The notes: a model not told the origin generated them from the letters alone. A stretch of DNA of 60,160 bases from Candidatus Zhuqueibacterota bacterium (GCA_016783505.1 JADHWK010000011.1:1-60160), one strand, 5' to 3'. Counted from the stretch's first letter, positions 16,292 to 48,461 are shown. Translations and numbers: made by a program.

Positions 16292-16301
16292 TTGTGTAAA
16301 A

Positions 16302-17607: not shown

Positions 17608-17912
17608 GTGCGCCGTGAAATTGGCCGGTATGATCCTGTGAATCAAGGATTTGATCGTTGTGAAAGATCAGCCCCTGAGCTGTGCCTCCCTCGTTATGAT
17701 GCAAAACTGTTAACTTCTTCCAAAGAACTGGCCGATTATTATGAAAAGGTCGTCAAAATAGTGGGTGATGCCAAAATATCTTCAAGGGAAAAAGTCGCTC
17801 CTTGGGTTTTTTATGGGTCAGGTAATGCGAAAAACGGGAGGCCGAGCAAATCCTAAGAACCTTGAATTCATTGTTGAAAGAAAAATTGTCGAAAATGCTT
17901 ACATCAGAATAG
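17608..17912 (+). pseudogene. gatB: Decayed 3' part of Asp/Glu-tRNA amidotransferase subunit B
   Basis: Pieces in three frames: PEL..LPRYDAKLLTSSKELADYYE..DAKISS; KYLQGKKSLLGFFMGQVMRKTGGRANPK; LNSLLKEKLSKMLTSE* (stop 17910-17912). Confidence 0.88.
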
Positions 17913-17956
17913 ATGCATTTTTTGTAAAAAATTTATCCAAACTCTGCATTTTTCTC

Positions 17957-17984
17957 TTGACATTTTGAAAAAAATTGTTAAATT
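17957..17984 (+). promoter_or_regulatory. Sigma70-type promoter of module 1
   Basis: TTGACA, 16-bp spacer ending TGT, then TAAATT; the same spacing is conserved at 48364-48391. Confidence 0.7.
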
Positions 17985-17997
17985 ATAATATAACATA

Positions 17998-18046
17998 TGA
18001 TTTATATCACATGAAGTAGTGATGTATATCACAAAGTTCTATATCA
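17998..18046. promoter_or_regulatory. Putative operator with two near-palindromes and a half site
   Basis: TGATTTATATCA (17998-18009), TGATGTATATCA (18020-18031) and TATATCA (18040-18046), just downstream of the -10. Confidence 0.5.
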
Positions 18047-18079
18047 TTATGCATATTTCAAATGGGGGTAAGTTAATGG

Positions 18080-18114
18080 AAAGCCGATTTTAGAGCGACT
18101 AATCGGCTTTTTTT
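18080..18114 (+). terminator. Intrinsic terminator in the 5' leader of module 1
   Basis: 10-bp stem AAAGCCGATT/AATCGGCTTT with an 11-nt loop, running into a T tract. Confidence 0.7.
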
Positions 18115-18255
18115 ATTTTAAAATGATATTTTAGGGTTAAAAACGTGAAATATATAATTTAAGGGTCTATTGAAAGGAGGTGATGAGGAAAAAGTGGCTA
18201 AAAATCTTTTTAAAAAACAGAAAGCAAAACACCCATAACAGGGAGGAGTTGAAAA

Positions 18256-21200
18256 ATGTATCGAAAGATCTTTTTAGTGGCTACTTTGTTGTTCCTTCTG
18301 CCTGCCTTGATATTTGCTACAGAGGGTAAATTGCGCGGCGTGGTAACAGACGAGGAAACAGGTGAGCCACTCCCCGGCGCGAACGTTATACTTGAGGAAA
18401 CCGTCCTCGGTGCATCCACCGATTTGGAAGGTGTGTATGTCGTGCTCGCCGTTTCGCCCGGAAGGTACACGGTGCGAGTCAGCTACATTGGGTACCAGAC
18501 GTTAGCGGTCTCCAACATCCGCGTCAGCGCAAACCTCACCACCACGAAAGATTTCCAGCTCACCCCAACAACAATAGATCTCGGGGCAATCGAAGTGGTG
18601 GCAGAGCGCCCGCTGATCCAACGGAATACCACCAATACCATCCGGATGACGACCCAGGAAGATATTCAGAACATGCCAATCCGTGGGTTGGATAATATCC
18701 TGGCGCTGGAAGCAGGCACAGTGCTGCAGGACGGCATACTGCACATACGTGGCGGTCGCGAACGTGAAGTGGCATACTTCATTGATAATGCCACAGCGAC
18801 AGTTCCCTACGTTGAGATCGGCCTTGGGGGTAGGGGCATGCAGTCGCAAAACCCCGGACTTGGAGAGGACCCTAACTACAGCGTTATACAAGAGTCAATT
18901 GAAGAAATTCAGATGCAGGCAGGGGGTTACACGGCGGAGTTCGGGGGTGGAAACTCAGCCATAGTACGCACCACCATGCGCTCCGGTGGCCCCAGACTCA
19001 GGGCGACAGTTGATTACCGGACGGACGCCTTTGCGAAGGAAGGCGAACAGTTTCTTGGAACATCGTCGTATGGCTACCAAAACGCCGTGCTCACCTTGAG
19101 TGGACCTATGCCCTTAATTCCTAAACTCAGGTTCTTTGCCGCGGGTCAGTACAACTATATGGACAACCGAACCCCAAGTTTTATTGAGCCCTTCAAGTTT
19201 GAGGGTCTGACAGAGGATGGTTATGCGGGGAGATCAGCTTATACCGATTCCCTGCTACCTGAAAATGGTACGGTCGAGTTCAAGCGGAATCATCTGCCCG
19301 ACAACTGGAGGAAAGACGGCTCTATCCAGGGAACGTTGCTGTATCCCCTGACAGATGCCTTCAAATTGCGGTTTACGGGTAGTTATCGCGGCTTAAGCCA
19401 GCTCACCGAGGGTCACCTCTTTGGGGGAACTCAAGCATCAAATTCCCCTTCATCTTTATACAACTATTTCAATATGGATAGAAGGCCGGAAAGAAGGGAG
19501 AGGTGGGGGTTAACCAGCCTGCGAGCCACCCATATTTTAAACCCCAAGACCTTCTATGAAGTTACCCTTTCCTACTCGAATCGGTCCTACAAGAGATTTG
19601 ACCCGGAATTCGAGGATGACTGGAGGTCCTATCCAGACAGCATAGCCAACTATGAAAAGGGATACGGGGTAGACTCAACCAACCAATGGCTGTCAAGGTA
19701 TCGGCCCCCCATTGAGTACAGTACCATCAACAATTTTGAATTCCAACCCCCAGGTTTCCCCACCAACCAATACGAGAAAAATAGCCAGTCGGATATCGGG
19801 GCGGCCCTCGACTTCACCACCCAGATGACGAAAACCTGGGAGTTAAAAGCAGGCGGCCGATTCGACCAGTGGACCATGCGCCGTTTCAACATTCGGGATA
19901 TCAGTGATTTAATGGAGGTTGAGTATGGTCCAGACGGAAGTTTAGACCCTGACAGATTTGCCAGCGACTATGAACGGTGGGTGAAACTTGCTAGATCAGG
20001 TGATAGACTCCGCCCGATCATCTACGGATACGACATTGATGGGGAGGAATACGACGAATTTCCCAATGGTCCCCGTAAGCCGTTATTCGCCTCCTTCTAC
20101 CTCCAGAATAAGTTCGAACACCGCGACATGATCCTCAACCTCGGTCTCCGCTTCGAAAGGATTGACATCAACGCCCCGATGCCAAAAAATCTTGAGGAAC
20201 CCGCCTTTGACGAGGACCTCGACTGGATAATCGAAGACGAAATGGAGGAGAGTGATCCCTATGACTACTGGCTGCCACGGGTCACCTTTTCGTTCCCGGT
20301 GACCGATAAAACGGTATTTTACACCTTATATGGCAAATACGTACAGATGCCGAACCTGAGTTCCATCTATCATGGGGTTCCGAAAATCAGTATGACCGTC
20401 AGTGAGGTCACCCGTCGTCCATACGGTTACTTTGGAGATTGGGTAGGGTTTTCTGCCAAGCCGGAGCATACTACCCAATACGAAATGGGTATCCGCCAAT
20501 CAATAACTGACAATTTTGCCCTCACCGCTACCGGGTTTTATAAGGACCTTCGGGATCAACTCCGATGGGATGTTGTCCGAGCAGTAGGAGAAGAATACGA
20601 TACAGAAGGTGAAATACAGTATGCGGGTCGTCTCAACAATGACTTTGGTACGGTGAAAGGGGTGGAGCTGACCCTGGAACTTCGACGCACCAAGCGGCTA
20701 ACTTCCAGGGCTAATTACACCTGGTCTGATACCCGGGGAACGGGATCCGATTCCAGACAATCAAGGGTCTGCGTGAGCGACGAAGTGATCGCAGAGTATC
20801 CCACCCTCATCTTCCCGCTCGACCATCACCAGCCCCATAGGGGTTCGGTGATGTTGGACTACCGCTTTGGCAAGGGTGATGGTGGTAAGCTACGCCAGGG
20901 TATGGGGATGAATTTGCTATTGACCTTCAACAGCGGCCATGCCTACACCAAGATTGTGGAGCCGCAAAACCTCGGTCAGGCAAATGCGTGGAATGTGGGC
21001 GTGCGTGCATTGGGTGACTCCCGCTTCCGAAACCCTGAAGAGCCGCTAAACTCTTCCCTGACGCCCTGGAATTTTAACGTTGACCTCAACTTGAATAAGT
21101 TATTCTACCTTGGCGGGATTAACGTAGATGTGTATGTGAACGTGTTGAACCTGTTTGACACCAAACATGTCATCAACGTCTATCCCATGACGGGAACTGC

Positions 21201-21378
21201 CGAAGATGATGGATGGTTGAGGGCTCCGCTGGCGGCTCCGTTTAATGCAATCCCCAACTATACCGATTTCTACAGGGCGATCAACTCCGATAACCGGTGG
21301 GCGTTTCAGGGGGTATGGGGGCAAGACCTCTATGGTACCCCCCGTCAGATACGCTTCGGCGTAAGGCTGGAACTCTGA
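18256..21378 (+). CDS. TonB-dependent receptor with an N-terminal carboxypeptidase-regulatory-like domain
   Basis: Signal peptide, GEPLPGANV, HIRGGR plug, GGYTAEFG, C-terminal PRQIRFGVRLEL. Confidence 0.93.
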   Translation: MYRKIFLVATLLFLLPALIFATEGKLRGVVTDEETGEPLPGANVILEETVLGASTDLEGVYVVLAVSPGRYTVRVSYIGYQTLAVSNIRVSANLTTTKDFQLTPTTIDLGAIEVVAERPLIQRNTTNTIRMTTQEDIQNMPIRGLDNILALEAGTVLQDGILHIRGGREREVAYFIDNATATVPYVEIGLGGRGMQSQNPGLGEDPNYSVIQESIEEIQMQAGGYTAEFGGGNSAIVRTTMRSGGPRLRATVDYRTDAFAKEGEQFLGTSSYGYQNAVLTLSGPMPLIPKLRFFAAGQYNYMDNRTPSFIEPFKFEGLTEDGYAGRSAYTDSLLPENGTVEFKRNHLPDNWRKDGSIQGTLLYPLTDAFKLRFTGSYRGLSQLTEGHLFGGTQASNSPSSLYNYFNMDRRPERRERWGLTSLRATHILNPKTFYEVTLSYSNRSYKRFDPEFEDDWRSYPDSIANYEKGYGVDSTNQWLSRYRPPIEYSTINNFEFQPPGFPTNQYEKNSQSDIGAALDFTTQMTKTWELKAGGRFDQWTMRRFNIRDISDLMEVEYGPDGSLDPDRFASDYERWVKLARSGDRLRPIIYGYDIDGEEYDEFPNGPRKPLFASFYLQNKFEHRDMILNLGLRFERIDINAPMPKNLEEPAFDEDLDWIIEDEMEESDPYDYWLPRVTFSFPVTDKTVFYTLYGKYVQMPNLSSIYHGVPKISMTVSEVTRRPYGYFGDWVGFSAKPEHTTQYEMGIRQSITDNFALTATGFYKDLRDQLRWDVVRAVGEEYDTEGEIQYAGRLNNDFGTVKGVELTLELRRTKRLTSRANYTWSDTRGTGSDSRQSRVCVSDEVIAEYPTLIFPLDHHQPHRGSVMLDYRFGKGDGGKLRQGMGMNLLLTFNSGHAYTKIVEPQNLGQANAWNVGVRALGDSRFRNPEEPLNSSLTPWNFNVDLNLNKLFYLGGINVDVYVNVLNLFDTKHVINVYPMTGTAEDDGWLRAPLAAPFNAIPNYTDFYRAINSDNRWAFQGVWGQDLYGTPRQIRFGVRLEL

Positions 21379-21438
21379 TAAATTGGTTTACCGATTGGAT
21401 TGTTTGAACTAAGATTCAAAAAAGAGGAGTTAGGAACC

Positions 21439-24400
21439 ATGAGGAAAATAATTATTCTATCCATTGTTGCCGCGGTTGCCTTGCTCAGCATGCTGGTGGG
21501 ATCGGTTTCCTTTGCTAAAGAGGAAGCCAATGAGACAATGAGCGGCAGGGGCTCGCTTTACAAGTCCAGCGATTATAAGCCGGATCGTTACCAGGTTCTC
21601 AACATTAATAACCTGTGGACCTGGACGCGCAGCGACGGTATCTCCAACCATTCGCCGTTGGGGGATAACGGGACCTTCTTTCCGCGGGGGACAGCCTGGC
21701 TCATCTACACGGACGGCATCATGTGGGGTGGCAAATGTTACAAAGATGCTGCATTGACAGAGCCCGCTCCACTTGGTCAACTAATTCGAGTGGGCGGCAC
21801 CAATTACGTCACTGGGTGTCGTGAAGGGCACATTGAAGGCACCGATGCTACCGCTGAGCCGTCCCCTCCTGGCGATGCTCTTATCTATAGAATCCGCCGC
21901 GACTACGCATCCATGTCCACGGAAGAATTGCAGAGGGATGCGGCGGAATCTAACGAGACCTCCGTCTCCAGCATAACCAGTGCAGAGACGGATGAGATCT
22001 ACGATCGGTACGAGTTAGATTGGGAAAATTGGCCGGTTGACCTTGGTGCCCCCTATATTGATAGAAACGGGGATGGGTTATACACCGCGCCGCCCCCCTT
22101 CAGTGCAACCTTCACCGTAGATGATCTCATCGCTGGGGGTCACGATGAACCGGGAATTGCTGGGGCCGACCCCAACTCACCAGCAGACCAGGTGGTATGG
22201 ACGGTTTTCAATGACCTCGACAGTGAGCAATGTATTGTCCTGCAGGGTTCCCATCCGATGGGTATGGAAGTGCAAATCACGGTTTGGGGCTACAAACGCA
22301 CCGACGCCCTGGGCAGTATCTATTTCCGCCGGGCAAGGATTATTAACAAGGGAGGCGTTGACACCAATGGTGATGGTAGCGCGGACGGCTCTTTCTGGGT
22401 TGACAGCATGTATGTGGCCCAGTGGTCAGATCCAGATTTGGGCTCAGCGGGTGACGACCTGTTGGGTTGCGATACCACCTTGAGCATAGGGTATGTGTAT
22501 AATGGCAATGCCAACGATAACGAGTATGTTAAGTTTGGTCTGCCCCCGCCTACGGCAGGGTATGACTTTCTGCAAGGTCCGATTGTGGCAGACAGCGGCT
22601 CTGTTGCGGTGTTCGACCTCAAATACCGAAACGATTTCAAGAATTTACCCATGACGTCCTTTTCGTGGTTTTCCGCCGGGAGTCCTATCTCTGATCCACC
22701 GCGTGACTATGGTACAGGGACGTTGCGCTGGTACAAAATGCTTCGGGGATATGTCCCCTTAGATGGACCCCTTGCATATTATCCATTCCCTGCGGGTGTA
22801 ACACCGAATACGTTTCCGTATTCTGGGGATCCAGTCACACAAACAGGTCTTCTTGATGGTCAGGGAACGCCCGACTCGTTTGCTCCGGGCGACCGCCGAC
22901 TCAACGTCAGCACCGGTCCCTTTACCTTAGCCCCTGGGGACACCCAGGAAGTTGTTGTGGCTGTTGTATGTGGAATCGGTGCCGATAGATTCTCCAGTAT
23001 TTCGGTGATGAAGTTCAACGACCGTTTTGCCCAGAACACCTACGACGCCCTCTTCCAGGTTCCCAGTCCGTCAAAAGCACCAACTGTGGTTGTAACTGAA
23101 TTGGATGGTCAGGTGGTTCTGGAGTGGGGGACCGATCTGGCGCGCGTTACCGACATAGAGACCACGGTGAACGAGCCCGGCGGTTTTGTGTTCGAAGGTT
23201 ACAACGTGTATCAATTCCCAAGTGCAGGTGCCTCCATCACCACCGAAGGAACAAAACGTATTGCCACCTATGACCTACCAACTGACCCCACGGTAATTCA
23301 AGACGAGCAATTTGACGTAAGCTCCGGTCTTGTTCGGTTTATGCCCGTTCAATTTGGCACAAACAGCGGCATAAAGCGTTTCTTCGAATTTGACCGTGAT
23401 TATGTCCTGGATGTTGACAAAATCTACAACGGGCAGGAGTATTATTTAGCCGTTACGGCCTACTCACGGGCCACGGTGTCCGGATACTTACCGGCGGCCC
23501 TGGAGTCGAGCCCGACAATCCTTACAGCTGTCCCCAAAGTGCCGTTTGGAGTCACCTATTATTCGGCGTACAATGACACACTTGCTGTTGAGCATGTTAG
23601 TGGAACCAGTGACGGTGTTGTACGTCCTATCGTTCTCGATCCCACGTTAAGTACGGGTGATACTTACGAGGTCAGTTTTGTAGCTACGGACAGTACTCCG
23701 GTGTGGAAATTGACGAATATCACGGATAATGTAGTTCTCCTCGATAACCAAACTAACCAAAGCGGAGACGATGAGTACAAGTTTGTTGATGGTCTCAACT
23801 TGAAGGTGGAAGGTCCACCACTTGAAGGAAACTCCTGGTCGGCTGAGGAAATAACGGGCGAGCGCTGGTTCTCGGGAGCGGGTGATGGCGAACTGCTGTA
23901 CGGAGGCGCCTACCTCGCTCCAAACTTCACTGGCAGTGGAATGGATCCCGCCGATTATAAGACAGTGGAGATCCGCTTTGTTGCGAAGACAGGCTACACA
24001 GATGACAACGGCAACGGAGCGTACGATATTGGTGAACCGTATACAATGCCAGAAACTGGCACACAGAAAGCCTGGCTTTATCAGACCTGGAATGATGAGG
24101 ATGCGTACCGAGGATTTTTCGATGTGCCTTTCACTGCATGGGATGTTCAAGGGGCGAATCCCCGTCAACTGAATGTTATCGTCCGGGATTATGATGATAA
24201 TGGCCAATGGGATTTGCATGACGACGATGTTTCTCCGTACAACTATACCTGGATCGCGGATACTGACTACGATCCGACGGGCGTGTTGCACGGTCCTCCC
24301 TCGCTGGGTGGTACAGGGTGGCTTTTCGATCAGAGCGATAAACCGGCACTCTGGACCTTGTGGCTAGGTCAACGTGGTTCGAGAGAACCTTATGGAGCAG

Positions 24401-24834
24401 ATGTCACATTGACGTTGGTGCCAAACTTCGTTAACACTGTGACTGACGTTTTTGGATTCAGCGCCCCCATGCCAAGAACAGGTTCTGATGATGAAGAATT
24501 TAGTGCAGAAAAGGTAGGCGTGTTCCCAAATCCGTACTACGCCTATAACCCAGCGGAGAGAAGCAAGCTTGCCAGGTTCGTCACCTTTAACAACTTACCG
24601 CCAGTGGCGACTATCAGAATCTTCAACTTAGCCGGTCAGTTGGTGCGAAAGATAGAGAAAGACAATACCTCACAGTTCCAACAGTGGAATCTGCTGAATC
24701 ATGATTCCCTTCCGGTGGCCAGCGGTATGTACATTGCGCATATTGAGATGACATTGCCTACAGGCAATAAGAAGTCCACCAAGATTCTGAAGCTAGCGAT
24801 CATCCAAGAGCAAGAAGTGCTCGATGTGTATTAA
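21439..24834 (+). CDS. Large secreted protein with a T9SS type A-like C-terminal sorting domain
   Basis: Signal peptide; GPFTLAPGDTQEVVVA, FEGYNVY and NGQEYYLAVTAY blocks; CTD VFPNPYY...IRIFNLAGQLVR...VASGMYI. Start set at ATG 21439. Confidence 0.88.
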   Translation: MRKIIILSIVAAVALLSMLVGSVSFAKEEANETMSGRGSLYKSSDYKPDRYQVLNINNLWTWTRSDGISNHSPLGDNGTFFPRGTAWLIYTDGIMWGGKCYKDAALTEPAPLGQLIRVGGTNYVTGCREGHIEGTDATAEPSPPGDALIYRIRRDYASMSTEELQRDAAESNETSVSSITSAETDEIYDRYELDWENWPVDLGAPYIDRNGDGLYTAPPPFSATFTVDDLIAGGHDEPGIAGADPNSPADQVVWTVFNDLDSEQCIVLQGSHPMGMEVQITVWGYKRTDALGSIYFRRARIINKGGVDTNGDGSADGSFWVDSMYVAQWSDPDLGSAGDDLLGCDTTLSIGYVYNGNANDNEYVKFGLPPPTAGYDFLQGPIVADSGSVAVFDLKYRNDFKNLPMTSFSWFSAGSPISDPPRDYGTGTLRWYKMLRGYVPLDGPLAYYPFPAGVTPNTFPYSGDPVTQTGLLDGQGTPDSFAPGDRRLNVSTGPFTLAPGDTQEVVVAVVCGIGADRFSSISVMKFNDRFAQNTYDALFQVPSPSKAPTVVVTELDGQVVLEWGTDLARVTDIETTVNEPGGFVFEGYNVYQFPSAGASITTEGTKRIATYDLPTDPTVIQDEQFDVSSGLVRFMPVQFGTNSGIKRFFEFDRDYVLDVDKIYNGQEYYLAVTAYSRATVSGYLPAALESSPTILTAVPKVPFGVTYYSAYNDTLAVEHVSGTSDGVVRPIVLDPTLSTGDTYEVSFVATDSTPVWKLTNITDNVVLLDNQTNQSGDDEYKFVDGLNLKVEGPPLEGNSWSAEEITGERWFSGAGDGELLYGGAYLAPNFTGSGMDPADYKTVEIRFVAKTGYTDDNGNGAYDIGEPYTMPETGTQKAWLYQTWNDEDAYRGFFDVPFTAWDVQGANPRQLNVIVRDYDDNGQWDLHDDDVSPYNYTWIADTDYDPTGVLHGPPSLGGTGWLFDQSDKPALWTLWLGQRGSREPYGADVTLTLVPNFVNTVTDVFGFSAPMPRTGSDDEEFSAEKVGVFPNPYYAYNPAERSKLARFVTFNNLPPVATIRIFNLAGQLVRKIEKDNTSQFQQWNLLNHDSLPVASGMYIAHIEMTLPTGNKKSTKILKLAIIQEQEVLDVY

Positions 24835-24886
24835 TGCCACGCTGAATCATTTTTGGATTTAAACAACTGAATAAGGAGATAATGCC

Positions 24887-25942: not shown

Positions 25943-25987
25943 GATTCGCCCCAAGATATTTCCAACCGTAAAGTATTTCTTGAGATT

Positions 25988-28401: not shown

Positions 28402-28546
28402 TATATTATAAGTGGTTAGCCATCTGAAGAAAGTGCACTAAATTATAATCTAATGCACCCAATCTAGGAAGGATGGCCTATTTTTGCTGATTACTTCACA
28501 TGGCTAAATAATTACGATATATTGAAGAAAAGGAGGGCGATTCACT

Positions 28547-29914: not shown

Positions 29915-30084
29915 CAGCCTTATGATTTGTCGGCCGGTGTGTATGAAGTATAAATATTAGATCATGGAGGTGAATGGTCACACAATACCACCTTCGAGAA
30001 GAATGGCTGTTCCAAGGGGTCCCGGCTAGTCTATTATGTTGGTTTCGTCTCCTCACTATTATTTTCATTGATTAAGAAAAAGAG

Positions 30085-34523: not shown

Positions 34524-34539
34524 GAAGGAGGAAACGGTC

Positions 34540-36417: not shown

Positions 36418-36495
36418 CACCTAATCAATGCCTATTATCTGTAGGATGGTAAGCTGTTCCATTCATACGGATAGTAGATTTTTAGGAGAAAGATA

Positions 36496-39000: not shown

Positions 39001-39074
39001 ACTAAAATTAATCTTGATGTTAAGATGCAATCTATTCATTATTCAATAGTACATAACTGAATTTGGAGGAAAAA

Positions 39075-40616: not shown

Positions 40617-40683
40617 ATATTAGGCTTGAAGTTTGTTATTGAAACTCTGTAAAGCTCATAATATTGAGCTAAAGGCGTTTAGT

Positions 40684-41451
40684 ATGAAAAAGATTCTCAT
40701 AATGTTTTTTATCCTTATGGTTTTTAAGTCACAATTATGGGCACAGCATTATATTACGCTTGGTTTGGGATTTAGTGGAGCGTTTTTTGATTCCGAAGAT
40801 CTGGATCGTTTTAAGGAGACATATAATTCAGTGAATAGCCCATATCTTGCGAACTATATGCGTGGGATCGGAGGGGCCATGGGTTTACGGTGGGAAATCG
40901 GTTATCGGTATATTGGTCGTTTAGGTACTGCCGTTTTAATTGGCATGCAAAATTATAAAAGTAATGATGCAGCCCAATATCAGAATGGTGAAGTGAGAAA
41001 TTTAGAACTAAAAATGAACAGCATGTATGTCGAATCTGAAATAGGGCATACCCGTAAGAACTTCTTTGTGAATGGTGTTTTAACATTATTTTTCGATCGA
41101 AAATTGACCCTTAAGAGTAAATATTCAGGACCAACAAGCGAAGCGGTAAAAAATCCTTTGAATGGAACTTACAATAGCGATACATCAATTTCAACAGATA
41201 TGGGGATTGCTATAGGGATTATTAAAGAACCGATTATTCTCACCGGTAAAATAACCTATCCCCTATTTACTGGGGGTGGATCCAATATTTTACAAGATAA
41301 ACGAGTCGAAAAAATTGAAAATGGGACAGATATTTTTCCAAATGATTATGAGGATTATTGCTTTGATAAGACCTACGATGGGGTCGCAAGCGATATTGAT
41401 GGATTGAAGATTTTGGTGACAATTGCCTTGGTGATTCCGTTAAAGAAGTAA
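40684..41451 (+). CDS. Hypothetical secreted protein, possibly an outer-membrane beta-barrel
   Basis: Signal peptide MKKILIMFF...LWA; alternating hydrophobic strands. Confidence 0.65.
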   Translation: MKKILIMFFILMVFKSQLWAQHYITLGLGFSGAFFDSEDLDRFKETYNSVNSPYLANYMRGIGGAMGLRWEIGYRYIGRLGTAVLIGMQNYKSNDAAQYQNGEVRNLELKMNSMYVESEIGHTRKNFFVNGVLTLFFDRKLTLKSKYSGPTSEAVKNPLNGTYNSDTSISTDMGIAIGIIKEPIILTGKITYPLFTGGGSNILQDKRVEKIENGTDIFPNDYEDYCFDKTYDGVASDIDGLKILVTIALVIPLKK

Positions 41452-41646
41452 TTGTGGAACCCAAATCCATAGTTGAGCTCTTACCCATTTTATCTAAATC
41501 TTGAGTAGATCAACTGGGAAGGATATCAAGAAGGAGAGAGGTGATAATGTAGATAATATGATCTGGTTTGACAAATACCATTACGATATTTCCGATAAAG
41601 ATTGAGGAAATTACATTATTCAAATTGTAAGAGAGGAGATTTTGAA

Positions 41647-42612
41647 TTGCTCAATCAGAAACCGAAAAACCAAGATCTTAATTGGCCCATGACTTTACCC
41701 CGCTATATGGAGATTCCAACCTTTATGCGGACCCCGCTGATCAAAGATCCAACCGAGTTTGACATCGCAATGATCGGGATACCCTATGATGGAGCGGTTA
41801 CAAACCGACCGGGGGCGCGGCATGGTCCGCGTGAGATCCGCAACTCATCCAGCATGATGCGGGCGATTCACCATGTAACCCGGGTAAATCCTTATGAACT
41901 TTGCCGGATTGGCGATGCAGGTGATGTGCCTTTTACCAGGGTTTATAATGTAGAAGAAACTCATCATGACATTACCCGCTTTTTTGCCCAATTTTACCAG
42001 GCTGGGATTTTGCCGCTATCAGCGGGGGGCGATCATTCAGTCACTCTGCCGATTCTTCGAGCACTTGCTGAAGACGCTCCGATCGGTATGGTCCATATTG
42101 ATGCACATACGGATACCTGGGATGAACTTATGGGCTGTAAATTCAGCCATGGTGCACCGTTCCGTCGGGCAGTGGAGGAAAACCTGCTAGATCCAAAGCG
42201 CACAGTGCAAATTGGCATTCGCGGCGCCCAGAATACGAGCGAGGGCTGGGATTACTCCATTGACAGTGGTATGCGAGTCATTTTTATGGAGGAATTTACG
42301 AAGCTCGGCGTAGATGCGGTAGTCGCTGAAACGCGCCGGTTCGTGGGTAATGGGCCGACCTATATTTCCTTCGACATTGACAGTCTGGACCCGGTTTATG
42401 CTCCCGGCACTGGAACCCCGGAGATCGGTGGCCTCACCACGATCGAGGCCCAAGCCCTGCTACGGGGTCTTCGCAGGCTGAACCTGATCGGGGCCGATGT
42501 GGTGGAAGTCTCACCACCATTTGATCCAAGCGGGAACACCGCACTGGTCGGTGCCACTATCATGTATGAAATTCTGTGCCTGCTGGCAGAAACAGTTGCA
42601 GCGCGCTCCTGA
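41647..42612 (+). CDS. Ureohydrolase (agmatinase family), resembling guanidinopropionase GpuA
   Basis: GARHGP, GGDHS, DAHTD and SFDIDSLDP Mn ligands; TTG start after SD GAGGAG (the ORF track starts it at 41602). Confidence 0.92.
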   Translation: MLNQKPKNQDLNWPMTLPRYMEIPTFMRTPLIKDPTEFDIAMIGIPYDGAVTNRPGARHGPREIRNSSSMMRAIHHVTRVNPYELCRIGDAGDVPFTRVYNVEETHHDITRFFAQFYQAGILPLSAGGDHSVTLPILRALAEDAPIGMVHIDAHTDTWDELMGCKFSHGAPFRRAVEENLLDPKRTVQIGIRGAQNTSEGWDYSIDSGMRVIFMEEFTKLGVDAVVAETRRFVGNGPTYISFDIDSLDPVYAPGTGTPEIGGLTTIEAQALLRGLRRLNLIGADVVEVSPPFDPSGNTALVGATIMYEILCLLAETVAARS

Positions 42613-42676
42613 TTGCGACTTGCCTTGCACAAATTTCTAACCCGTGGCCACTTGACCTCTTTAAGGAGGTATACAA

Positions 42677-42946
42677 ATGAAATTTGTTGAAGATCCAAGA
42701 ATAAGGGAAGGCCGTAAGACCCTTGCCCTGGCCTGGCTCTATTTTTTCATCTATCTTATCGTCATTATGGGTTCGTCATATTTTTTAGGGATAAAACCCT
42801 ACTTATGGGGATTACCTCGCTGGGTGGCAATTGGTAACATAGTGGTCCCCATCGTATTTGTAATAATGCTAATATTTGTGGTGGAAAAATTCATACCTGA
42901 TATCCCCCTGACAGATGACGAAGAAGAATCGGAGGAAAAAGAATGA
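42677..42946 (+). CDS. YhdT/DUF997-like two-TM partner of a sodium:solute symporter
   Basis: EDPR...LWGLPRW...DIPL pattern; ATGA overlap with the symporter gene. Confidence 0.8.
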   Translation: MKFVEDPRIREGRKTLALAWLYFFIYLIVIMGSSYFLGIKPYLWGLPRWVAIGNIVVPIVFVIMLIFVVEKFIPDIPLTDDEEESEEKE

Positions 42947-44427
42947 ATGCGGCAATAGTTACCTTCTTGGCTTATACAGCAATATTGATTGCAATTGGAA
43001 TATGGTCATATCGGATTGTAGAAAAAGTACCCATCGCAAAATACGAAAAGGAATTCTATGCAGCAGGCAGAGGGCTGGGGGGAATTGTGGTGGCCTTAAT
43101 CATTGCCGGAGGGCTTGCCAGCGCGGGAACCTTTATCGCCGGTCCTGGAATGACCTATGCTTATGGCTATTCCTGGGTGCTTTTCAATAACTTCCAGATT
43201 TTTATGAACCTTGCATTATTGGCTCCAATAGGTATAATAGTCGGAATTGTAGCACGGCGAGTGAATGCTGTAACCTACCTGGACATATTCAAAGCCAGAT
43301 ATCAAAGCAAGGCTATTATAATATTACTTGCAGTTTTAGTGACAATATTTTTAATACCATATATGTCGGTCCAGTTTGTAGGTTCGGCCAGGGTTATTGC
43401 TCAAATGACAGATATGGGATTTTTTCCGTCTCTTGCTCTCGGATCTCTGGTCGTATTGGTTTATTGTGTATTGGGTGGTATGCGTGGGACATCTCTAGCG
43501 ATTCTTATACAAGGCATTGTCATAACCGTTGGATGCATATTGCTGTTTATAGGCACAGTAAATTATGCAGGGGGATTCAAAAGGTCTACTGAGATCCTTG
43601 CCGCCCAGGACATTAACTTTCTTTCACCAACTATGGGCGGTGCATTTTCCCCAGCGTTTGCTTTTTCAATTGCTTGCATCACAGGTCTTTTTGTAGTTGG
43701 CATGCCGCATGCAATGCTCGGTGCTCTTACATACAAAAATACAAGAGCGCTTAAAAGAGGCATCTGGATGGGAGGGATATTGGTTTTAATATGGACACTT
43801 CTTTTGTGTATGGCAGGAGTAATAGGCCGTTCAATAAAACCTGATCTTGCAGTACCGGATGAAATTGCTCCTTGGTTAGCAATGCATGTGATGCCGGAAG
43901 CTCTGGGAGGAGTTGTCCTCGCAGGTATTGTGGCAGGAATCCAGACGACTGTTGCGGCAATGGCCATAATCATAACCTCAAGTATAGCAAAAAATCTTCT
44001 CAGAGAACTCAAACCAGATATATCAAGCGAAAAAATTAAATCAGCCTCAAGATGGACTATGGGGGGCTGCCTGGCAATCGCGATAGCATTAGCCCTGCTG
44101 CAGCCCCCATTAATTCAGTGGATCATCTTCTTTTCAATCGGGGGACTGCAAACTGCTACATTTGGACCGATCCTTTTGGGTATGTTTTGGAAAAGAGGAA
44201 ATCAGTGGGGAACGATCGCATCCATTACCTGGGGAATGATCACCTATGCGCTTGCCAAAACAATCGTTCCACAAATTGCCCTATGGGGGACGTTTGAATC
44301 TTTTGTTCCCACAATTACTTCTGTTATCGTTTACGTTGTGGTCAGCCTGGCTACACCTAATCCATCTGATAAAATCATATGGACATTTTGGGGACCAGCC
44401 ATGAGAACGTTAAAAAGCAACTATTAG
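42943..44427 (+). CDS. Sodium:solute symporter (PanF-like)
   Basis: EFYAAGRGLG, SAGTFIAGPG, GGMRG and GMFWKRGN motifs; about 13 TM segments. Confidence 0.92.
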   Translation: MNAAIVTFLAYTAILIAIGIWSYRIVEKVPIAKYEKEFYAAGRGLGGIVVALIIAGGLASAGTFIAGPGMTYAYGYSWVLFNNFQIFMNLALLAPIGIIVGIVARRVNAVTYLDIFKARYQSKAIIILLAVLVTIFLIPYMSVQFVGSARVIAQMTDMGFFPSLALGSLVVLVYCVLGGMRGTSLAILIQGIVITVGCILLFIGTVNYAGGFKRSTEILAAQDINFLSPTMGGAFSPAFAFSIACITGLFVVGMPHAMLGALTYKNTRALKRGIWMGGILVLIWTLLLCMAGVIGRSIKPDLAVPDEIAPWLAMHVMPEALGGVVLAGIVAGIQTTVAAMAIIITSSIAKNLLRELKPDISSEKIKSASRWTMGGCLAIAIALALLQPPLIQWIIFFSIGGLQTATFGPILLGMFWKRGNQWGTIASITWGMITYALAKTIVPQIALWGTFESFVPTITSVIVYVVVSLATPNPSDKIIWTFWGPAMRTLKSNY

Positions 44428-44533
44428 ATCTACACTATATATATTTTTTATAGAGAAGGGCTTTTGCTTTTTCAAACAAAAAAATTAATGGGTTTATCTA
44501 AGGATTAGAAAATTTTAAAAAGGAGAAAGAAAC

Positions 44534-45646
44534 GTGAAGGAAAAATTAAAAATCACCAGTGTTGATATCTATAAAGCTGATATCGAATTCAAAGAGCCGT
44601 TCAGGATAGCAATCATGGAAATCCTCAGCGCCCAGAGTGTCTTTATAAAAATCAATACAAATGAGGATTTATATGGGCTTGGCGAAGCAAATCCCACCTG
44701 GGGGATCACAGGTGAGACGCAATCTATCAATCTTGCCGGAGCCGTTGACCTTGCCAGGTTATTGCTCAATAAGGATCCCCTAAATATTGAAGGGCGGATG
44801 AGAGAAATTGACAGATTTTTAATCCACAACAGCACACTGCGGAGTGCTTTCGATATGGCATTGTATGACCTTCTGGGCAAGGTTGCCGAACTTCCGTTGT
44901 ATGCTGTTCTTGGAGGAGGAAAGCGTTCCTTCTGGACGGATAACACAATAGGAATCGCCGATCCTGATTACATGGCTAAAAAAGCCCTTGATTACAAGAA
45001 TCAAGGGTTCCAGGCTATAAAAGTTAAACTCGGGACCACCACAGATCAGGACATCGAAAGAATCAAAAAGATCAGAAAAGCCATAGGAGATGATCTGCCA
45101 ATCCGGATTGATGCTAACCAGGGTTGGGATTATAAAACTGCTGTAGTTACTCTCCAAGGTCTGGAATCAATGGGAATTGAGTATTGCGAGCAGCCCATTG
45201 CTTGTTGGGACTATGAGAATATGCGGCGGATCAGACAGAATACTTCGATTGCGATCATGGCTGATGAGTCCTTGTTTGACCATCATGACGCGTTTAAACT
45301 TGCATCCATGGGGTGCTGCGACTATTTTAATATTAAATTGGCAAAGTCTGGAGGCATCCATACCGCTCTGAAGATCAATGCGATAGCTGAAAGTGCCGGT
45401 ATTCGCTGCATGGTAGGTTGCATGACTGAGACACGGCTGGGTTTGACAGCGGCGGCGCATGTGGTTTCCGCGCGGCCCAATATTCAATATGCGGACCTCG
45501 ATGGTTATTTAATGTTGAAAGAAGACCCAGTCATCGGCGGTGCCCATTACAATGTCGGAGAAATTAATCTACCCGACACTCCCGGTCACGGTGCAGATAT
45601 AGATCCTGATTTCCTGAAACATTGTGAATCTACGACGGTCAAGTAG
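44534..45646 (+). CDS. Dipeptide epimerase (L-Ala-D/L-Glu epimerase-like, enolase superfamily)
   Basis: KVK, DANQG, EQP, ADES, NIKLAKSGG and DLD motifs. Confidence 0.92.
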   Translation: MKEKLKITSVDIYKADIEFKEPFRIAIMEILSAQSVFIKINTNEDLYGLGEANPTWGITGETQSINLAGAVDLARLLLNKDPLNIEGRMREIDRFLIHNSTLRSAFDMALYDLLGKVAELPLYAVLGGGKRSFWTDNTIGIADPDYMAKKALDYKNQGFQAIKVKLGTTTDQDIERIKKIRKAIGDDLPIRIDANQGWDYKTAVVTLQGLESMGIEYCEQPIACWDYENMRRIRQNTSIAIMADESLFDHHDAFKLASMGCCDYFNIKLAKSGGIHTALKINAIAESAGIRCMVGCMTETRLGLTAAAHVVSARPNIQYADLDGYLMLKEDPVIGGAHYNVGEINLPDTPGHGADIDPDFLKHCESTTVK

Positions 45647-45715
45647 CAGCAATAGTGATGTGTTTCAATATGAGAAAAACAAGTTTACAGAATACCAAAA
45701 AAGGAGGGTTATGTT

Positions 45716-46522
45716 ATGAAGGGAATGAACAATCTATTGAAAAAATGGCCGGTACTTATCTTCGTCGGTCTTGCATTTGCAGCCTGTAGGCAAGCTCAAG
45801 ATTTCAAGGCGGGATTACTGGATATGACGTATCCCTTTGATGAAAACACCATTTACTGGCCAACTGCAAAACCCTTTAAGTTACAGAAGGGTGCCTGGGG
45901 AATCACTGAGAAAGGCTATTGGTACGCTTCTAACGAATATAGTGCCGCAGAACACGGAGGAACCCATGTAGACGCACCTATTCATTTTGCCCAGAATGGG
46001 CGGACTATTGACCAAATTCCCCTGGATGAATGGATCGGGCCCGCAGTCAAGATAGATGTTACCGAAAAATGCGAAAGAAATCGGGATTACCTCCTTAGTG
46101 TCGATGATATTAGAGACTGGGAGAAGAAATATGGCAGAATTCCTGATCATGCCTGGGTAATCATGTACACTGGTATAGATACTAAATATTACCCTGATAA
46201 AGAAAAAGTCCTGGGAACGGACAGAACAGGCGAAGCAGCAATTCCTGAGTTGAGTTTCCCAGGTTTTTCACCTGAATCAGTTGAGTTTTTGATAAGAGAG
46301 AGAAACATCACGGGAATAGCCCTTGACACTCCTAGTATAGATTACGGAAAATCAAAGGACTTTAAAGTTCACCAAACTCTCTTTGCCGCTGATAAACTTG
46401 CTTTGGAAAATATAGCCAATTTAGATAAGCTTCCATCTTCTGGATCGATGCTTTATGTAATGCCGATGCTCATCAAAGATGGAACAGGTGCGCCAGCTCG
46501 AGTTTTCGCGATGCTTCCTTAA
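45716..46522 (+). CDS. Cyclase-family (kynurenine formamidase-like) metal hydrolase, lipoprotein
   Basis: EHGGTHVDAPIHF, DTPSID and GTGAPARV motifs; lipobox FAAC. Confidence 0.9.
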   Translation: MKGMNNLLKKWPVLIFVGLAFAACRQAQDFKAGLLDMTYPFDENTIYWPTAKPFKLQKGAWGITEKGYWYASNEYSAAEHGGTHVDAPIHFAQNGRTIDQIPLDEWIGPAVKIDVTEKCERNRDYLLSVDDIRDWEKKYGRIPDHAWVIMYTGIDTKYYPDKEKVLGTDRTGEAAIPELSFPGFSPESVEFLIRERNITGIALDTPSIDYGKSKDFKVHQTLFAADKLALENIANLDKLPSSGSMLYVMPMLIKDGTGAPARVFAMLP

Positions 46523-46635
46523 GTTTTTATAAAATACCACCAAACACATTAAAAACACGAAAAGGAGACAGTCCCTTAATCACTTAAAAATTGAGTTTTG
46601 TAAAACTTTTTTCAAAAAAATACATGGAGGACAAA

Positions 46636-48034
46636 ATGCGCAGAAGAATTTTAAAAATCTTACTCGTTGCCTTTTTCATCGGCAATTTGTCTCTTGCGAC
46701 AGCGCAGAACTTGACCGGAAGAGAAAAACAATGGCTGGCAAAAGCTTATCGAAATGATAAGAATGGCTGGATATTCTTGCATATTGAAGGAGGACCTTTT
46801 GAAAGAGGGTTCCAGCGTGGTTACTTGACTGCTAACGAAATTGATGAGTTCTTAAAAACAGTAGCTTATTTAGAAAAATTTGAGACTGCCAAAGAAATTG
46901 ATTTTTTTGTTAAAGCTGCTAATATACTTTTCAAGAATAAAGTCTCTAAAGAATATATTGAAGAGATGAAAGGGACGGTGGCGGGGATGGAAAAAGCGGG
47001 GAGAAAAGTAACTTTTGAGGAAATGCTTTTTATGAATGGATTTATTGATGTGCTCTGGCACTGGTGGCCTCAGGAGAAGGATAAAATTAAAATGCCTGGC
47101 CCTGGTTGTAGTGCTTTTATTGCCACCGGAGAGGTGACTTCCGATGGCAAAATAGTAATGGCTCATAATTCATGGTATTTCTATTCTTAGATTTTGTAAT
47201 ATTATTGTGGACATCGTTCCAGACAAGGGACACCGAATCCTGATGCAATCCTGGGGACCTTGTTTATATAGCGCCACTGATTTTTTCATCACTGGGGCAG
47301 GGTTAATTGGTACAGAAACTACAATTGGAGGTTTTAGCGGATTCGATCCAGAGGGGATACCTGTTTTTGAAAGAGCCAGGAAAGCAATGCAATATGCCAA
47401 TAGCATTGATGAATGGGTTAAAATAATGATTGAAAACAATAATGGGGCCTATGCCAATTCCTGGCTATTGGGAGATATTAGAACTAATGAGATTGCCCGG
47501 CTTGAGCTTGGTTTGAAACATCACAGTATAGAGAAAAAGAAGGATGGGTATTTTACGGGTTCAAATATTGTGGATAATATAGAAATTTTAAGAGAGGAGA
47601 CCGATGCGACTTATGATGATGTAAGAAATTTTTCTGTAGCTCGCAGGGTGCGTTGGAAACAGTTAATGAAAAAGTATTATGGGAAAATTGATGTGGAAAT
47701 TGCCAGAAGAATGCTGGCTGACCATTATGATGTCTATTTAGAAAAAGAAATACCAAGCTCCAGAACAATATGCGGTCACTGGGAATTAGATAATGGAAGT
47801 GTTCCGGGAAGTCTAGGTGCTTATCTACCAGGCGGAGCCATCGATGGAAAAGTCGTTAGCTCAAATATGGCAAAGAATTGGAAGATCTGGGCAAAATGGG
47901 GAAGCTCTTGCGACATTGGTTTCGATGCTAAAAAGTTTTTAGAAAAACACCCACAGTATGAATGGCTGCAAGGATATTTAAAAGATCTACCTGCCAAACC
48001 TTGGACTATATTCCCTTTTAACGAAAGTAAATAA
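46636..48034 (+). pseudogene. C45 / phospholipase-B-like Ntn hydrolase split by a frameshift near 47180-47190
   Basis: ORF1: signal peptide, HIEGGPFERGFQRG, CSAFIATG...AHNSW (Cys nucleophile). The other frame continues LRFCNIIVDIVP...ETT...GAYANSWL. A sequencing error is possible. Confidence 0.82.
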
Positions 48035-48064
48035 TTTTGCACCAATTTTTCTGCTTATTATTAC

Positions 48065-48169
48065 TTAATTGATAAATTTGGTGAAGACATTGAAGAGCCT
48101 TTTCCTGGTTATCTTAATATTCCATTCAAGGTTGAAGGTGGGGATTTCAGCATCACCGCACTCGATTAA
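48065..48169 (+). pseudogene. 3' remnant of a paralog of the 32397-33266 lipoprotein
   Basis: LIDKFGEDIEEPFPGYLNIPFKVEGGDFSI versus LIESFGENVEELGPNYLKIPFQRQGGRFEI, 17/30 identical, ungapped. Confidence 0.8.
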
Positions 48170-48280
48170 TTGAATCTGAAGCATAATTAAGCTAAGTCAC
48201 TGATATCAAATAAATTAATTTTTGGTGCCGTCTCAATTTTGTGTCGTCAATATCGAAAACTATGTCCCTTAGTCCTTTTG

Positions 48281-48461
48281 TTGTTAAAAGAAGAGTTGTC
48301 GAAAATGCTTATATCAGAATAGACTTGCTTATTGTGAAATTTCATTCAACCCTCATTTTTTTCTTGACATTTACCAAAAAATTATTAAATTATAAATAAA
48401 CATAATTTGTCTTCATATAGAAAACTTTAGAAAGCCGAGTTAGGATGAAAATATTGGCTTC
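48281..48461 (+). promoter_or_regulatory. Second copy of the gatB 3' end + promoter + leader hairpin block (module 2)
   Basis: 48281-48322 is 38/42 identical to 17871-17912 (LLKEELSKMLISE*); TTGACA-16bp-TAAATT at 48364-48391; AAGCCGA/TTGGCTT hairpin at 48432-48460. Confidence 0.85.

Follow-up and report, generated by a model that had tools for sequence, protein, structure and literature searches.

Uptake loci built around TonB-dependent receptors (PUL-like loci) occur in the Bacteroidota and related phyla, where a receptor with an N-terminal carboxypeptidase-regulatory-like domain is followed by surface proteins and degradative enzymes. Paralogous outer-membrane protein genes undergo gene conversion, for example in the bab/sab family of Helicobacter pylori, and integrative elements whose target is a gene's 3' end leave direct repeats, attL and attR. 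We analysed a window of 60,160 nt from a Candidatus Zhuqueibacterota genome (the whole stretch of DNA, with coordinates counted from its first letter), in which the end of a GatB-like gene and a promoter occur twice, each time before a receptor operon. As in PUL-like loci, an outer-membrane receptor is followed by surface proteins and degradative enzymes and the TonB receptor carries the N-terminal carboxypeptidase-regulatory-like domain, but instead of a SusD-like partner, of which there was no sign, the receptor is accompanied by a PorV/FadL-like barrel and by a large protein ending in a T9SS-type tail. A literature search for this trio of receptor, T9SS-tail protein and PorV gave general T9SS work only. 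As in the bab/sab type of conversion, short young tracts lie at the 5' ends of diverged outer-membrane paralogs, such as a tract of 287 nt, whereas the block with the GatB-like tail lies entirely outside the coding region, between flanks that have no homology today.

Rearrangements can also provide genes with promoters. In Escherichia coli, promoter capture through microhomology-mediated deletions and duplications is experimentally documented, in a paper that also cites the Cit+ case of the long-term evolution experiment (PMC6614815). As described there, a rearrangement sets a copy of a resident promoter before a gene and breakpoints in neighbouring genes leave fragments at the joint (PMC6614815), which resembles the present locus. 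Here, in contrast, the event is old (about 10-20% divergence) and inferred from sequence alone, its geometry misfits a single tandem duplication, and microhomology at the block edges is not demonstrated. A second related system is formed by the orphan-module arrays of Rhs, CDI and T6SS effector-immunity genes, which are described as arising by displacement with a conserved upstream anchor, homology-facilitated illegitimate recombination being the proposed route (PMC5361080). There too, diverged modules are arrayed and the displaced ones are preceded by a conserved upstream stub; according to that source the anchor belongs to the toxin gene or cluster itself, and alternative modules are seen in many strains (PMC5361080). 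In this genome, by contrast, unrelated housekeeping genes (cdsA and, as a relic, gatB) supplied the stubs, the modules are uptake operons, and alternatives at the site were not seen.

The repeated block and its source gene

The features of the window that are discussed below are as follows.

16302..17063, plus strand: tatC (Pfam TatC, E 2.8e-69), the last intact gene before the relic
17116..17314, no strand assigned: two palindromic repeats of a dispersed family (17116-17180 and 17230-17314), where the front of gatB would be expected
17650..17912, plus strand: GatB/YqeY-domain relic (tblastn with the GatBs of 27 genomes; Pfam GatB_Yqey)
17871..18003, plus strand: copy A, with tail 17871-17912, spacer 17913-17946 and promoter region 17947-18003 (-35 at 17957-17962, -10 at 17979-17984)
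18078..18118, plus strand: terminator-like hairpin with T run in leader A, between promoter and receptor A (-13.5 kcal/mol, z -3.1)
18256..25942, plus strand: operon A (Pfam; same order in metagenome loci)
18256-21378, plus strand: TonB-dependent receptor of operon A, receptor A (Pfam)
21400-24834, plus strand: 1144-aa protein of operon A, with a weak T9SS sorting-tail match
24887-25942, plus strand: PorV-like barrel of operon A (Pfam)
26047..32354, plus strand: conserved extension of operon A, namely a PIG-L-domain protein, a GWxTD protein and a second receptor (Pfam)
33507..48034, plus strand: peptidase and amino-acid catabolism genes (Pfam)
48281..48408, plus strand: copy B, with tail 48281-48322 (no GatB-like sequence upstream), spacer and promoter (-35 at 48364-48369, -10 at 48386-48391)
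48513..59432, plus strand: operon B (Pfam)
48513-51629, plus strand: receptor B (Pfam)
48582..48868, plus strand: young tract inside receptor B, 247/287 nt (86%, ungapped) shared with receptor 2 of contig C10; the remainder has 28% protein identity
51714-54071, plus strand: 785-aa protein of operon B (Pfam scan)
54096-55208, plus strand: PorV-like barrel of operon B (Pfam)
55215-59432, plus strand: 1405-aa protein of operon B, with a T9SS sorting-tail match just below the cut-off

Copies A and B align over about 130 nt (blastn: 80.6% identity in 129 columns, E 1.7e-23), the gene tail agreeing at 39/43 positions, the promoter at 43/51 and the spacer at 19/30. The tails were found as originally predicted: 17871-17912 and 48281-48322 agree at all but 4 of 42 positions and encode LLKEKLSKMLTSE and LLKEELSKMLISE, each followed by a stop codon, and the similarity continues unbroken through TTGACA-16-TAAATT. 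Both edges are abrupt, at 17871/48281 on the left and at 18003/48408 on the right, and the flanks do not align. The longest identical run common to both tails, 16 nt, would fit a recombination core but also ordinary 90% identity. In a blastn search against the whole 2.51-Mb assembly the tail gave the match between the two copies (39/43, E 7e-11) and no further one. The block occurs twice in this assembly, which is 59.9% complete; the part not recovered may contain an intact gatB or a third copy. The present sequence shows no homology in either flank of copy B, and the 246 nt before it have no blastn match elsewhere in the genome.

GatB-like sequence reaches 220 nt upstream of copy A, an extension that copy B lacks. 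Because the tail runs on into more GatB-like relic only behind tatC, this locus holds the native copy. With the GatBs of 27 other genomes, tblastn aligned only 17650-17811 (residues ~305-375) and 17765-17896 (~445 to the end), in different frames; the relic consists of two fragments with about 85 residues missing between them, changes frame again after ANPK and lacks the N-terminal 300 residues. Pfam GatB_Yqey matches at model positions 111-148 of 148 (E 8.7e-11), and the frame of the tail is the GatB frame, most GatBs from the 27 other genomes ending in ...ANPxxVNxLLKEKL or close variants. N- and C-terminal GatB domains are not found together in one open frame; there are only ends of the C-terminal domain, in two to three frames. 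A word-index search with the 67-aa relic ORF returned, as the best of 12 candidates scored, three GlnRS with an appended YqeY domain (E 0.011-0.033). The original description of the first tail as the end of a decayed gatB therefore stands in that a GatB-frame relic continues upstream; judged by its sequence, the parent gene is gatB-like, gatB itself not being proven. A profile search of the 59.9%-complete genome gave no GatB_N domain above the E 0.05 cut-off and gatA was not found in it, while GlnRS and AsnRS are both encoded, so that the relic was probably dispensable. The two palindromic repeats upstream have blastn matches in both orientations on more than 10 contigs, and a TatC scan of a collection of genome contigs gave one locus, with 43% identity and no synteny.

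The two operons and the DNA between the copies

In agreement with the original prediction, both copies lead into operons of a receptor, a large secreted protein and a PorV-like gene (Pfam). The PorV matches exceed the Pfam cut-off (30.1 and 42.7 bits versus 27), the receptor matches likewise pass, and the T9SS sorting-tail matches stay under it (16.8 and 26.2 bits versus 27). The order of the extension of operon A, whose second receptor is split (30085-31239 and 31185-32354), is identical in the metagenome loci L054, L060, L062, L065, L076 and others. Between 33507 and 48034 we found DUF1028, S15, M1, beta-lactamase family, arginase family, SSF transporter, MR_MLE and cyclase genes and a split phospholipase-B-like gene.

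Receptors A and B share 31%/26% identity and the PorV-like genes of the two operons 28%. At four-fold sites under identical residues, third positions of the receptors agree at 23.1% of 143 sites against a codon-usage expectation of 27.7 +/- 3.2%, and those of the PorV-like pair at 26.4% against 28.3%. By this measure, operons A and B are ancient paralogs with saturated synonymous sites, and the block, with its 80.6% identity against chance-level agreement at those sites, is far younger than the operon paralogy; the divergence is not even along the unit, as a duplication of the whole module would have it. It is therefore scarcely credible that the block is a leftover of the old tandem duplication that made both operons. 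Their common order of block, receptor, large protein and PorV-like gene would suit such an origin, but the chance-level synonymous sites contradict it, receptor-A orthologues from many lineages (45-73%) are far closer to A than B is, and a non-coding stub could not hold 80-90% identity for so long.

An integrative island of 30.4 kb in the 3' end of gatB, with the two copies as attL and attR and an integrase acting in trans, is very improbable too. Like the ends of att-site elements, the copies are direct repeats that contain a gene end and stand tens of kilobases apart, and they are identical over a run of 16 nt; 15 kb upstream there is a broken tyrosine-recombinase gene (2866-3193), and short low-GC genes elsewhere in the genome are bracketed by direct repeats that include a gene tail. 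However, the earlier observation that no recombinase is adjacent was correct, no Phage_integrase or recombinase domain occurring in the scanned ORFs of at least 100 aa at 17.9-48.5 kb. The segment between the copies (about 30.3-30.4 kb) has a GC content of 0.462 versus 0.464 for the genome and does not look foreign, unlike the small low-GC inserts, so that the likeness to these is incomplete; its cargo is an operon of conserved order in relatives together with peptidase genes. Moreover, the similarity continues about 90 nt past the stop codon into the promoter, and the target gene, instead of being kept intact, is dead.

Related loci differ for the two receptors. Receptor-A homologues were found at 88, 87 and 87% identity in a protein search, and the best non-self homologue of receptor B, among 5.8 billion proteins, at 61%; receptor B is thus possibly a later arrival, which may have been in need of a promoter. 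The receptor-A operon has a single gene order across 68 metagenome loci and therefore behaves as a stable operon. No GatB match was present near the receptor-A homologues (45-73% identity) in any of these 68 loci, 50 of which, by our own count from the table, hold at least 1 kb upstream of the homologue. In 32 loci the nearest upstream ORFs were ROK, ClpX, LexA, serA-like and others, 10 having no Pfam match.

Gene tails, young tracts and promoters elsewhere in the genome

A second arrangement of this kind was found on contig C10, in the order cdsA, receptor 1, a 730-aa protein, a PorV-like gene, a remnant of the cdsA tail, a similar promoter, receptor 2 and a third module. The tail remnant agrees with cdsA at 35/41 positions, and the promoters of receptors 1 and 2 agree with each other at 32/39. 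Over their first 40 codons, receptors 1 and 2 share 78% of nucleotides, and 68% of third positions versus 37% in the rest. Tail-bearing repeats were also counted genome-wide: among 1674 ORFs, 13 queries of the last 48 nt had a directly oriented non-coding match on their own contig versus 5 internal-control queries, both counts being lower bounds since queries of this length missed the C10 case itself. In 11 aligned tail pairs, hand-picked with the C10 pair included and summed by ourselves, mismatches amount to 10.6% at first, 6.5% at second and 15.1% at third codon positions (chi-square p 0.0006) and to 15.3% in intergenic sequence, a pattern that fits copies which were identical at the event and of which one remained selected while the other decayed.

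According to the original prediction, modules are acquired or exchanged at the gatB end. This holds to the extent that the tail of an upstream gene can travel with a promoter before the next receptor module and that modules stand in arrays, the C10 cdsA being the second case. Neither gatB as an anchor or attachment site nor the swapping of whole modules is supported: gatB is a short and probably dispensable relic, the assembly has two copies of the block, 0/68 loci carry a GatB match, the receptor-A operon has a constant order in them, the promoter is generic, the scanned ORFs of at least 100 aa between the copies include no integrase, and the composition is not foreign.

In essence, the original model is one of anchored acquisition, similar to the displacement model for Rhs/CDI and T6SS arrays, in which DNA of a relative would enter via a conserved upstream gene as anchor and have its other end joined illegitimately, the resident module being pushed downstream with a stub of the anchor and repeats of the event building arrays behind gatB and cdsA. 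Such a model is published for other arrays (PMC5361080), and the recurrence with a second housekeeping gene, the resemblance of a tail variant in run X6 to copy B and the great difference between the closest homologues of the two receptors speak for it; tail and promoter outlast the spacer, as expected for functional sequence in two lineages. We nevertheless hold it to be unlikely. In none of the 68 related loci was gatB near the receptor-A operon, the gatB relic is a poor long-term anchor, and modules would already have had to be swapped once before, precisely at the edge of the promoter. In addition, the ratio of 1 : 0.70 : 0.43 for positions 3, 1 and 2 in the 11 tail repeats is a better fit to copies identical at the event than to long-constrained orthologues, and nearly all third positions of the C10 tail agree despite the saturated neutral sites of the neighbouring genes.

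The tail itself could act as an upstream promoter element (an activator site or UP-like), its copies being kept alike by selection; how it was copied would then be secondary, duplicates that include the tail being those that survive. At both loci the tail significantly outconserves the adjacent spacer (39/43 versus 19/30, p 0.007, in the gatB block; 35/41 versus 12/43, p 9e-8, on C10), and in each case some 45-85 nt separate it from the -35 hexamer downstream. Against this, the gatB and cdsA tails have no common motif, the gatB tails show neither an additional copy in the genome nor an inverted repeat or RNA structure (z +0.86 and +0.88), and copy A reads as a plain gene end. The idea, which we consider improbable, accounts for the conservation and not for the origin of the copy. 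We give similarly little credence to a recurrent, possibly enzyme-driven addition of DNA behind resident genes that leaves 40-330 nt of the upstream gene's tail and intergenic sequence duplicated where the new DNA is joined. Single low-GC foreign genes (those behind DUF3108, V-ATPase subunit C, PEPCK-like and other genes) and the receptor/PorV arrays behind gatB and cdsA would then have one common origin, and the tails would be functional as recognition sequence or promoter element and not passengers. If tail-bearing repeats round low-GC genes do mark a defined insertion mechanism, this would be a new route of gene gain.

Origin of the second copy

With middling confidence, we read the block as a scar left where non-allelic recombination reached the 5' end of a receptor operon, an event that is not specific to gatB. 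The source of the roughly 130 nt copied to a place before receptor B would be the tatC-side locus, either of this genome or of a close relative. Seeding probably took place in the near-consensus promoters common to these operons; such homology is available, since 8 or more further sites in the genome, one of them before tRNA-Met, match the promoter part over 18-56 nt with 78-100% identity, and the block promoter is of a generic type that fits the genome-wide promoter consensus. The left end of the copy would be an illegitimate join, placed 42 nt ahead of the relic's former stop codon, with the last 14 codons of the relic as a passenger, and the outcome would be a second copy of a strong promoter before operon B, that is promoter duplication or capture. 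The copy may have arisen through one-ended repair synthesis, through template switching accompanied by a flanking duplication, or through a duplication and a subsequent deletion, the last requiring two steps because a plain tandem duplication cannot set an upstream promoter before a downstream gene.

In favour of this recombination scar, the block is a short, highly identical stretch whose flanks are diverged or unrelated, and more such tracts occur in the paralog family, between receptor B and C10 receptor 2 and between C10 receptors 1 and 2. The promoter consensus, with 78-90% identity among unrelated promoters, could serve as homology on the right side, nothing being seen on the left, and a standard conversion tract is not demonstrated since copy B has no flanking homology. 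A tail that is better kept than the spacer is not expected if a single copied block simply decayed neutrally. Read as such a scar, the block would make the uptake operons ancient barrels whose 5' ends are reshuffled by short recombination tracts, and would be a small example of promoter gain and diversification in such operons. In annotation, housekeeping-gene stubs before receptor operons would be scars and not genes, which is also useful for dating gene-family expansion in uncultured FCB-type bacteria.

A misassembly was rejected on the 10-20% divergence of the copies and on the bridging of junction A in a second study, in which a contig of 1087 nt covers 17394-18480 with 1 mismatch. In run X6, a loose end of 36 nt leads from the relic into a tail variant that is by eye nearer to copy B than to copy A, which fits import from a relative and a later change of copy A equally. 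A read joint 17261>21419 was rejected as a rearrangement and attributed to cross-matching, its shorter side having 27 letters and starting in a dispersed repeat. Loose ends at 18109 and 18142 are part of a 34-nt stretch in another, more abundant sequence, and the low X5 cover at 17342-17675 and 18010-18343 is no evidence.

An AAGCCGA hairpin had been proposed for both leaders. The heptamer is indeed present in both, but we reject a shared structured element: when the two leaders are shuffled, 968 of 5000 trials yield a 9-mer in common, and hairpin B folds no better than its shuffles (z -0.23). Rfam gave no family in the window at the gathering score and, at E up to 1 in 17850-18270, just one rliA match at chance level. 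Hairpin A, with its T run, looks like an intrinsic terminator.

The repeated block and the gene relic at its left end

The window is one entire contig (C44, 60,160 nt) of an assembly of 2.51 Mb in 89 contigs (GC 0.464, completeness 59.9%, contamination 1.8%), and its large genes lie without exception on the + strand. The elements compared here are the following.

17650-17912: remains of a gene with a GatB/YqeY domain (the relic)
17871-18003: block preceding receptor operon A (copy A)
18256-21378, + strand: TonB-dependent receptor A
48281-48408: block preceding receptor operon B (copy B)
48513-51629, + strand: TonB-dependent receptor B

The relic is preceded by purB, purC, psd, pssA, purS, purQ, a DUF4321 gene and tatC, in this order; behind tatC lie 850 nt without an intact gene and then operon A, and operon B follows about 30 kb beyond. 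None of the roughly 200,000 species genomes searched belongs to this phylum, and in the searched genome contigs the closest match to TatC has 43% identity.

The original prediction named two matching stretches that continue through a promoter, and this observation was borne out: the first 42 nt of the two copies are identical at 38/42 positions, and the local alignment, which sets the block limits listed, runs on through the promoter. In blastn against the whole assembly, the gene tail matches at 39/43 (E 7e-11) and the entire block at 80.6% over 129 columns (E 1.7e-23). The tail is followed by a spacer rich in A and T runs (19/30 aligned columns identical, gaps not counted) and then by the promoter region, identical at 43/51, where both copies have TTGACA, 16 nt and TAAATT. 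No third copy was found in this 59.9%-complete assembly.

Metagenome runs of nine studies contain at least part of 14000-23000. A run from a study that is not the likely source contains one contig spanning 13000-17259 with 2 differences and a further one crossing 17394-18480 with 1 difference; the junction of relic, block and receptor A is therefore real. A low-depth contig of sequencing run X6 follows the relic to 17853 and then carries a variant tail (30 letters compared), the last 18 letters of which are by eye closer to copy B than to copy A.

That the tail stems from a decayed gatB, as was also predicted, holds for its frame and domain. The ORF at 17765-17968 encodes the final 38 positions of the GatB_Yqey domain (Pfam, E 8.7e-11), and the GatBs of 27 other genomes match only 17650-17811 (around residues 305-375) and 17765-17896 (from around residue 445 to the C-terminus), two fragments in different frames. 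With ...ANPxxVNxLLKEKL or a near variant as the C-terminus of most of these GatBs, the frame of LLKEKLSKMLTSE* is the GatB frame, entered through one further frame change after ANPK. The only proteins that the relic ORF retrieved in a word-index search were three GlnRSs carrying an additional YqeY domain, at weak E-values, and the parent gene is best described as gatB-like, its identity as gatB falling short of strict proof. Neither the contig nor the rest of the assembly contains the catalytic N-terminal domain of GatB (best match E 0.049, elsewhere), and the 590 nt from tatC to the relic hold palindromic repeats of a family present on many contigs.

Full genes for GlnRS (749 bits, C30:3089-4672) and AsnRS (475 bits, C60:7022-8299), both over the curated cut-off, occur on other contigs of the assembly, and gatA was not found in its 60% of the genome. 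This combination implies that tRNA-Gln and tRNA-Asn are charged directly, the way E. coli and Bacteroides do it; the two control genomes without GatB in these searches, E. coli and Bacteroides thetaiotaomicron, likewise have GlnRS and AsnRS without gatA. The amidotransferase route therefore seems, within the limits of 60% completeness, to have been given up, with the gatB-like gene decaying.

Surroundings of the receptor-A operon in relatives

Operon A comprises a TonB-dependent receptor, a 1144-aa protein, a PorV-like barrel, a PIG-L-domain protein, a GWxTD protein and a second, split receptor, and is followed by peptidase and amino-acid catabolism genes. In the protein collection, receptor A has homologues at 88, 87, 87, 77, 75 and 73% identity; the best non-self homologue of receptor B has 61% and the next 55-57%. 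Aligning the best 16 receptor-A homologues led to 68 metagenome loci (45-73% identity) in which the order receptor, large protein, PorV-like, PIG-L, GWxTD and often a second receptor is kept. GatB matches at E up to 0.001 are missing from all 68 loci, 50 of which extend 1 kb or more upstream of the receptor, and so are the genes found upstream of receptor A in the window. The nearest upstream ORFs, scanned in 32 of 33 chosen loci (one near-duplicate left out), were serA-like in seven, LexA in two, asparaginase in two and without Pfam match in ten, with single cases of ROK, ClpX, a helicase, a class II tRNA synthetase and others; GatB was found in 0/32. In more distant relatives the receptor-A operon thus has no gatB linkage.

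The promoter of the block is of a generic type common to many genes. With copy A as query, at least eight other contigs match, in the promoter part alone (78-100% over 18-56 nt), one match preceding a tRNA-Met gene and another a further receptor on contig C10. The promoter parts of A and B, at 84%, are not more alike than unrelated promoters of the same genome, so that it is the tail, together with contiguity, that supports a common descent of the block.

In the receptor-A leader, the motif AAGGAGGTGA (18166-18185) lies about 70-100 nt upstream of the start codon, separate from the ribosome-binding site, and occurs in many related loci as well (L053, L055-L060, L063 and L076), sometimes in two or three copies. 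Between promoter and receptor (18078-18142) stands a terminator-like hairpin with a T run and then TTTTAGGG, and similar stretches occur in the leaders of L055 and L059. This hairpin, which matches no Rfam family, may be an attenuator or a short RNA.

Age of the block and similar repeats elsewhere

Operon B holds a receptor, a 785-aa protein, a PorV-like barrel and a 1405-aa protein, and its likeness to operon A is old. The receptors share 31% and 26% identity in two segments, the PorV-like proteins 28%, and the second genes only 99 residues at the C-terminus (36%) and a weakly matching internal stretch. Where residues are identical, the third positions of four-fold sites agree in 23.1% (n=143) for the receptors vs 27.7 +/- 3.2% expected from codon usage alone, and in 26.4% (n=53) vs 28.3% for the PorV-like pair. 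Neutral sites are thus saturated, and a non-coding block still 80-90% identical cannot be as old as the duplication from which A and B arose; it is far younger than the operons. For this operon type of receptor, PorV and T9SS, a literature search of limited scope yielded general T9SS papers only and no description.

A comparable arrangement is found on C10. Behind cdsA (Pfam CTP_transf_1, E 6e-53) stand receptor 1, a 730-aa protein and a PorV-like gene; a 41-nt remnant of the cdsA tail (35/41) and a similar promoter (32/39) then lead into a second series of genes, namely receptor 2, a 706-aa protein, a 195-aa protein, a PorV-like gene, a TIG-domain protein and receptor 3. BLASTP puts receptors 1 and 2 at 48% identity (52% over the columns aligned for third-position analysis), with third positions identical in 34.8% vs 27.2% expected; over the first 40 codons the DNA is 78% and third positions are 68% identical. 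Receptor B and C10 receptor 2 moreover share an ungapped tract (48582-48868 and C10:18621-18907, 247/287 nt) that spans the N-terminal carboxypeptidase-regulatory-like domain, the remaining protein being 28% identical, which reads as a clear mosaic between contigs. The 5' ends of receptor modules thus bear several short tracts of similar and modest age on an anciently diverged background. Gene conversion among outer-membrane paralogs is known in Helicobacter.

Repeated gene tails are not confined to receptor modules. The terminal 48 nt of 1674 long ORFs served as queries and windows 150 nt further inside the genes as controls; 13 queries vs 5 controls matched non-coding DNA in direct orientation on the same contig within 60 kb; the C10 tail falls below the threshold of this census. 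In the cases inspected, the tail of a resident gene and the following intergenic stretch are repeated beyond one inserted gene, as repeats of 125-330 nt with 75-91% identity. The resident genes are DUF3108, V-ATPase subunit C, a PEPCK-like gene and a cNMP-binding protein, and the inserted ones a radical SAM enzyme, a 597-aa ORF, a 166-aa ORF and a DUF5615/PIN-like gene (L128-L131, C57:6751-9529, C66:42830-45417, C33:6733-8098 and C5:3770-4849). GC is clearly low in three of the four inserts (0.305, 0.342 and 0.396 vs flanks of 0.42-0.54) and 0.460 vs 0.50 in the fourth. Summed over 11 hand-picked aligned pairs, the C10 pair included, mismatches at codon positions 1, 2 and 3 number 40/379, 25/386 and 58/384 (chi-square p 0.0006), and 47/307 in intergenic DNA, as would be expected if the copies were identical at the event and the first was then selected as a gene end while the second decayed. 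Such repeat-bracketed inserts look like a recurrent mode of insertion with long flanking duplication, and these genome-wide tail-bearing repeats are a more interesting lead than the gatB block. The 30.3-kb segment between the gatB copies has the GC of the genome (0.462), so the gatB case is not simply an enlarged version of the small low-GC inserts.

Recombination as a proposed source of the block

The block is native at A, and the feature reads as an ordinary kind of recombination scar. Since it is young, its promoter is generic and comparable tracts and repeats occur elsewhere, we give roughly even chances to the reading that the block before operon B arose by non-allelic recombination, which duplicated the promoter with 42 nt of dead gene alongside. 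The exchange may have been seeded in the promoter and its left end closed through an illegitimate join, and operon B might have benefited from the copied promoter. In E. coli, promoter capture has been shown to proceed via microhomology-mediated deletions and tandem duplications, as described in PMC6614815. One unexplained detail counts against a recombination scar: the tail is better conserved than the adjoining spacer (p 0.007 for the gatB block, 9e-8 for C10), for which patchy tracts, later indels in the A/T runs, import of the sequence from a relative or selection on the tail for a role upstream in the promoter might each account.

The original prediction, in which receptor modules are acquired or exchanged at the gatB end and carry it along, is akin to the displacement model put forward for Rhs, CDI and T6SS arrays, as outlined in PMC5361080. 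Its observation is confirmed and its interpretation supported in part. A docking site specific to gatB is not supported, given the generic promoter, the similar tracts elsewhere and the gatB linkage of 0/68 loci, and we regard such anchored exchange as unlikely.

Elsewhere in the window, what is left of a broken tyrosine-recombinase gene (2866-3193) is its N-terminal SAM-like domain (E 1.3e-18) and, of the catalytic domain, the final 37 residues (E 1.1e-15); the middle part is missing. A 52-nt piece of the gene (98%, at 5314-5365) and an intergenic block of 127-134 nt (87-89%, at 3182-3315 and 5419-5552) recur 2.2-2.4 kb downstream. Three further genes are split, each into two overlapping or adjacent ORFs: the second receptor (30085-32354), a phospholipase-B-like gene (46591-48034) and an aspartyl-protease-like gene (809-1619). 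Together with the gatB and recombinase relics, they suggest that gene decay is still under way. The repeats near the broken recombinase gene bracket a deaminase/HATPase_c_4 gene, after which a low-GC stretch (0.33-0.40, 4-12 kb) carries an SfiI-like restriction enzyme and a methylase.
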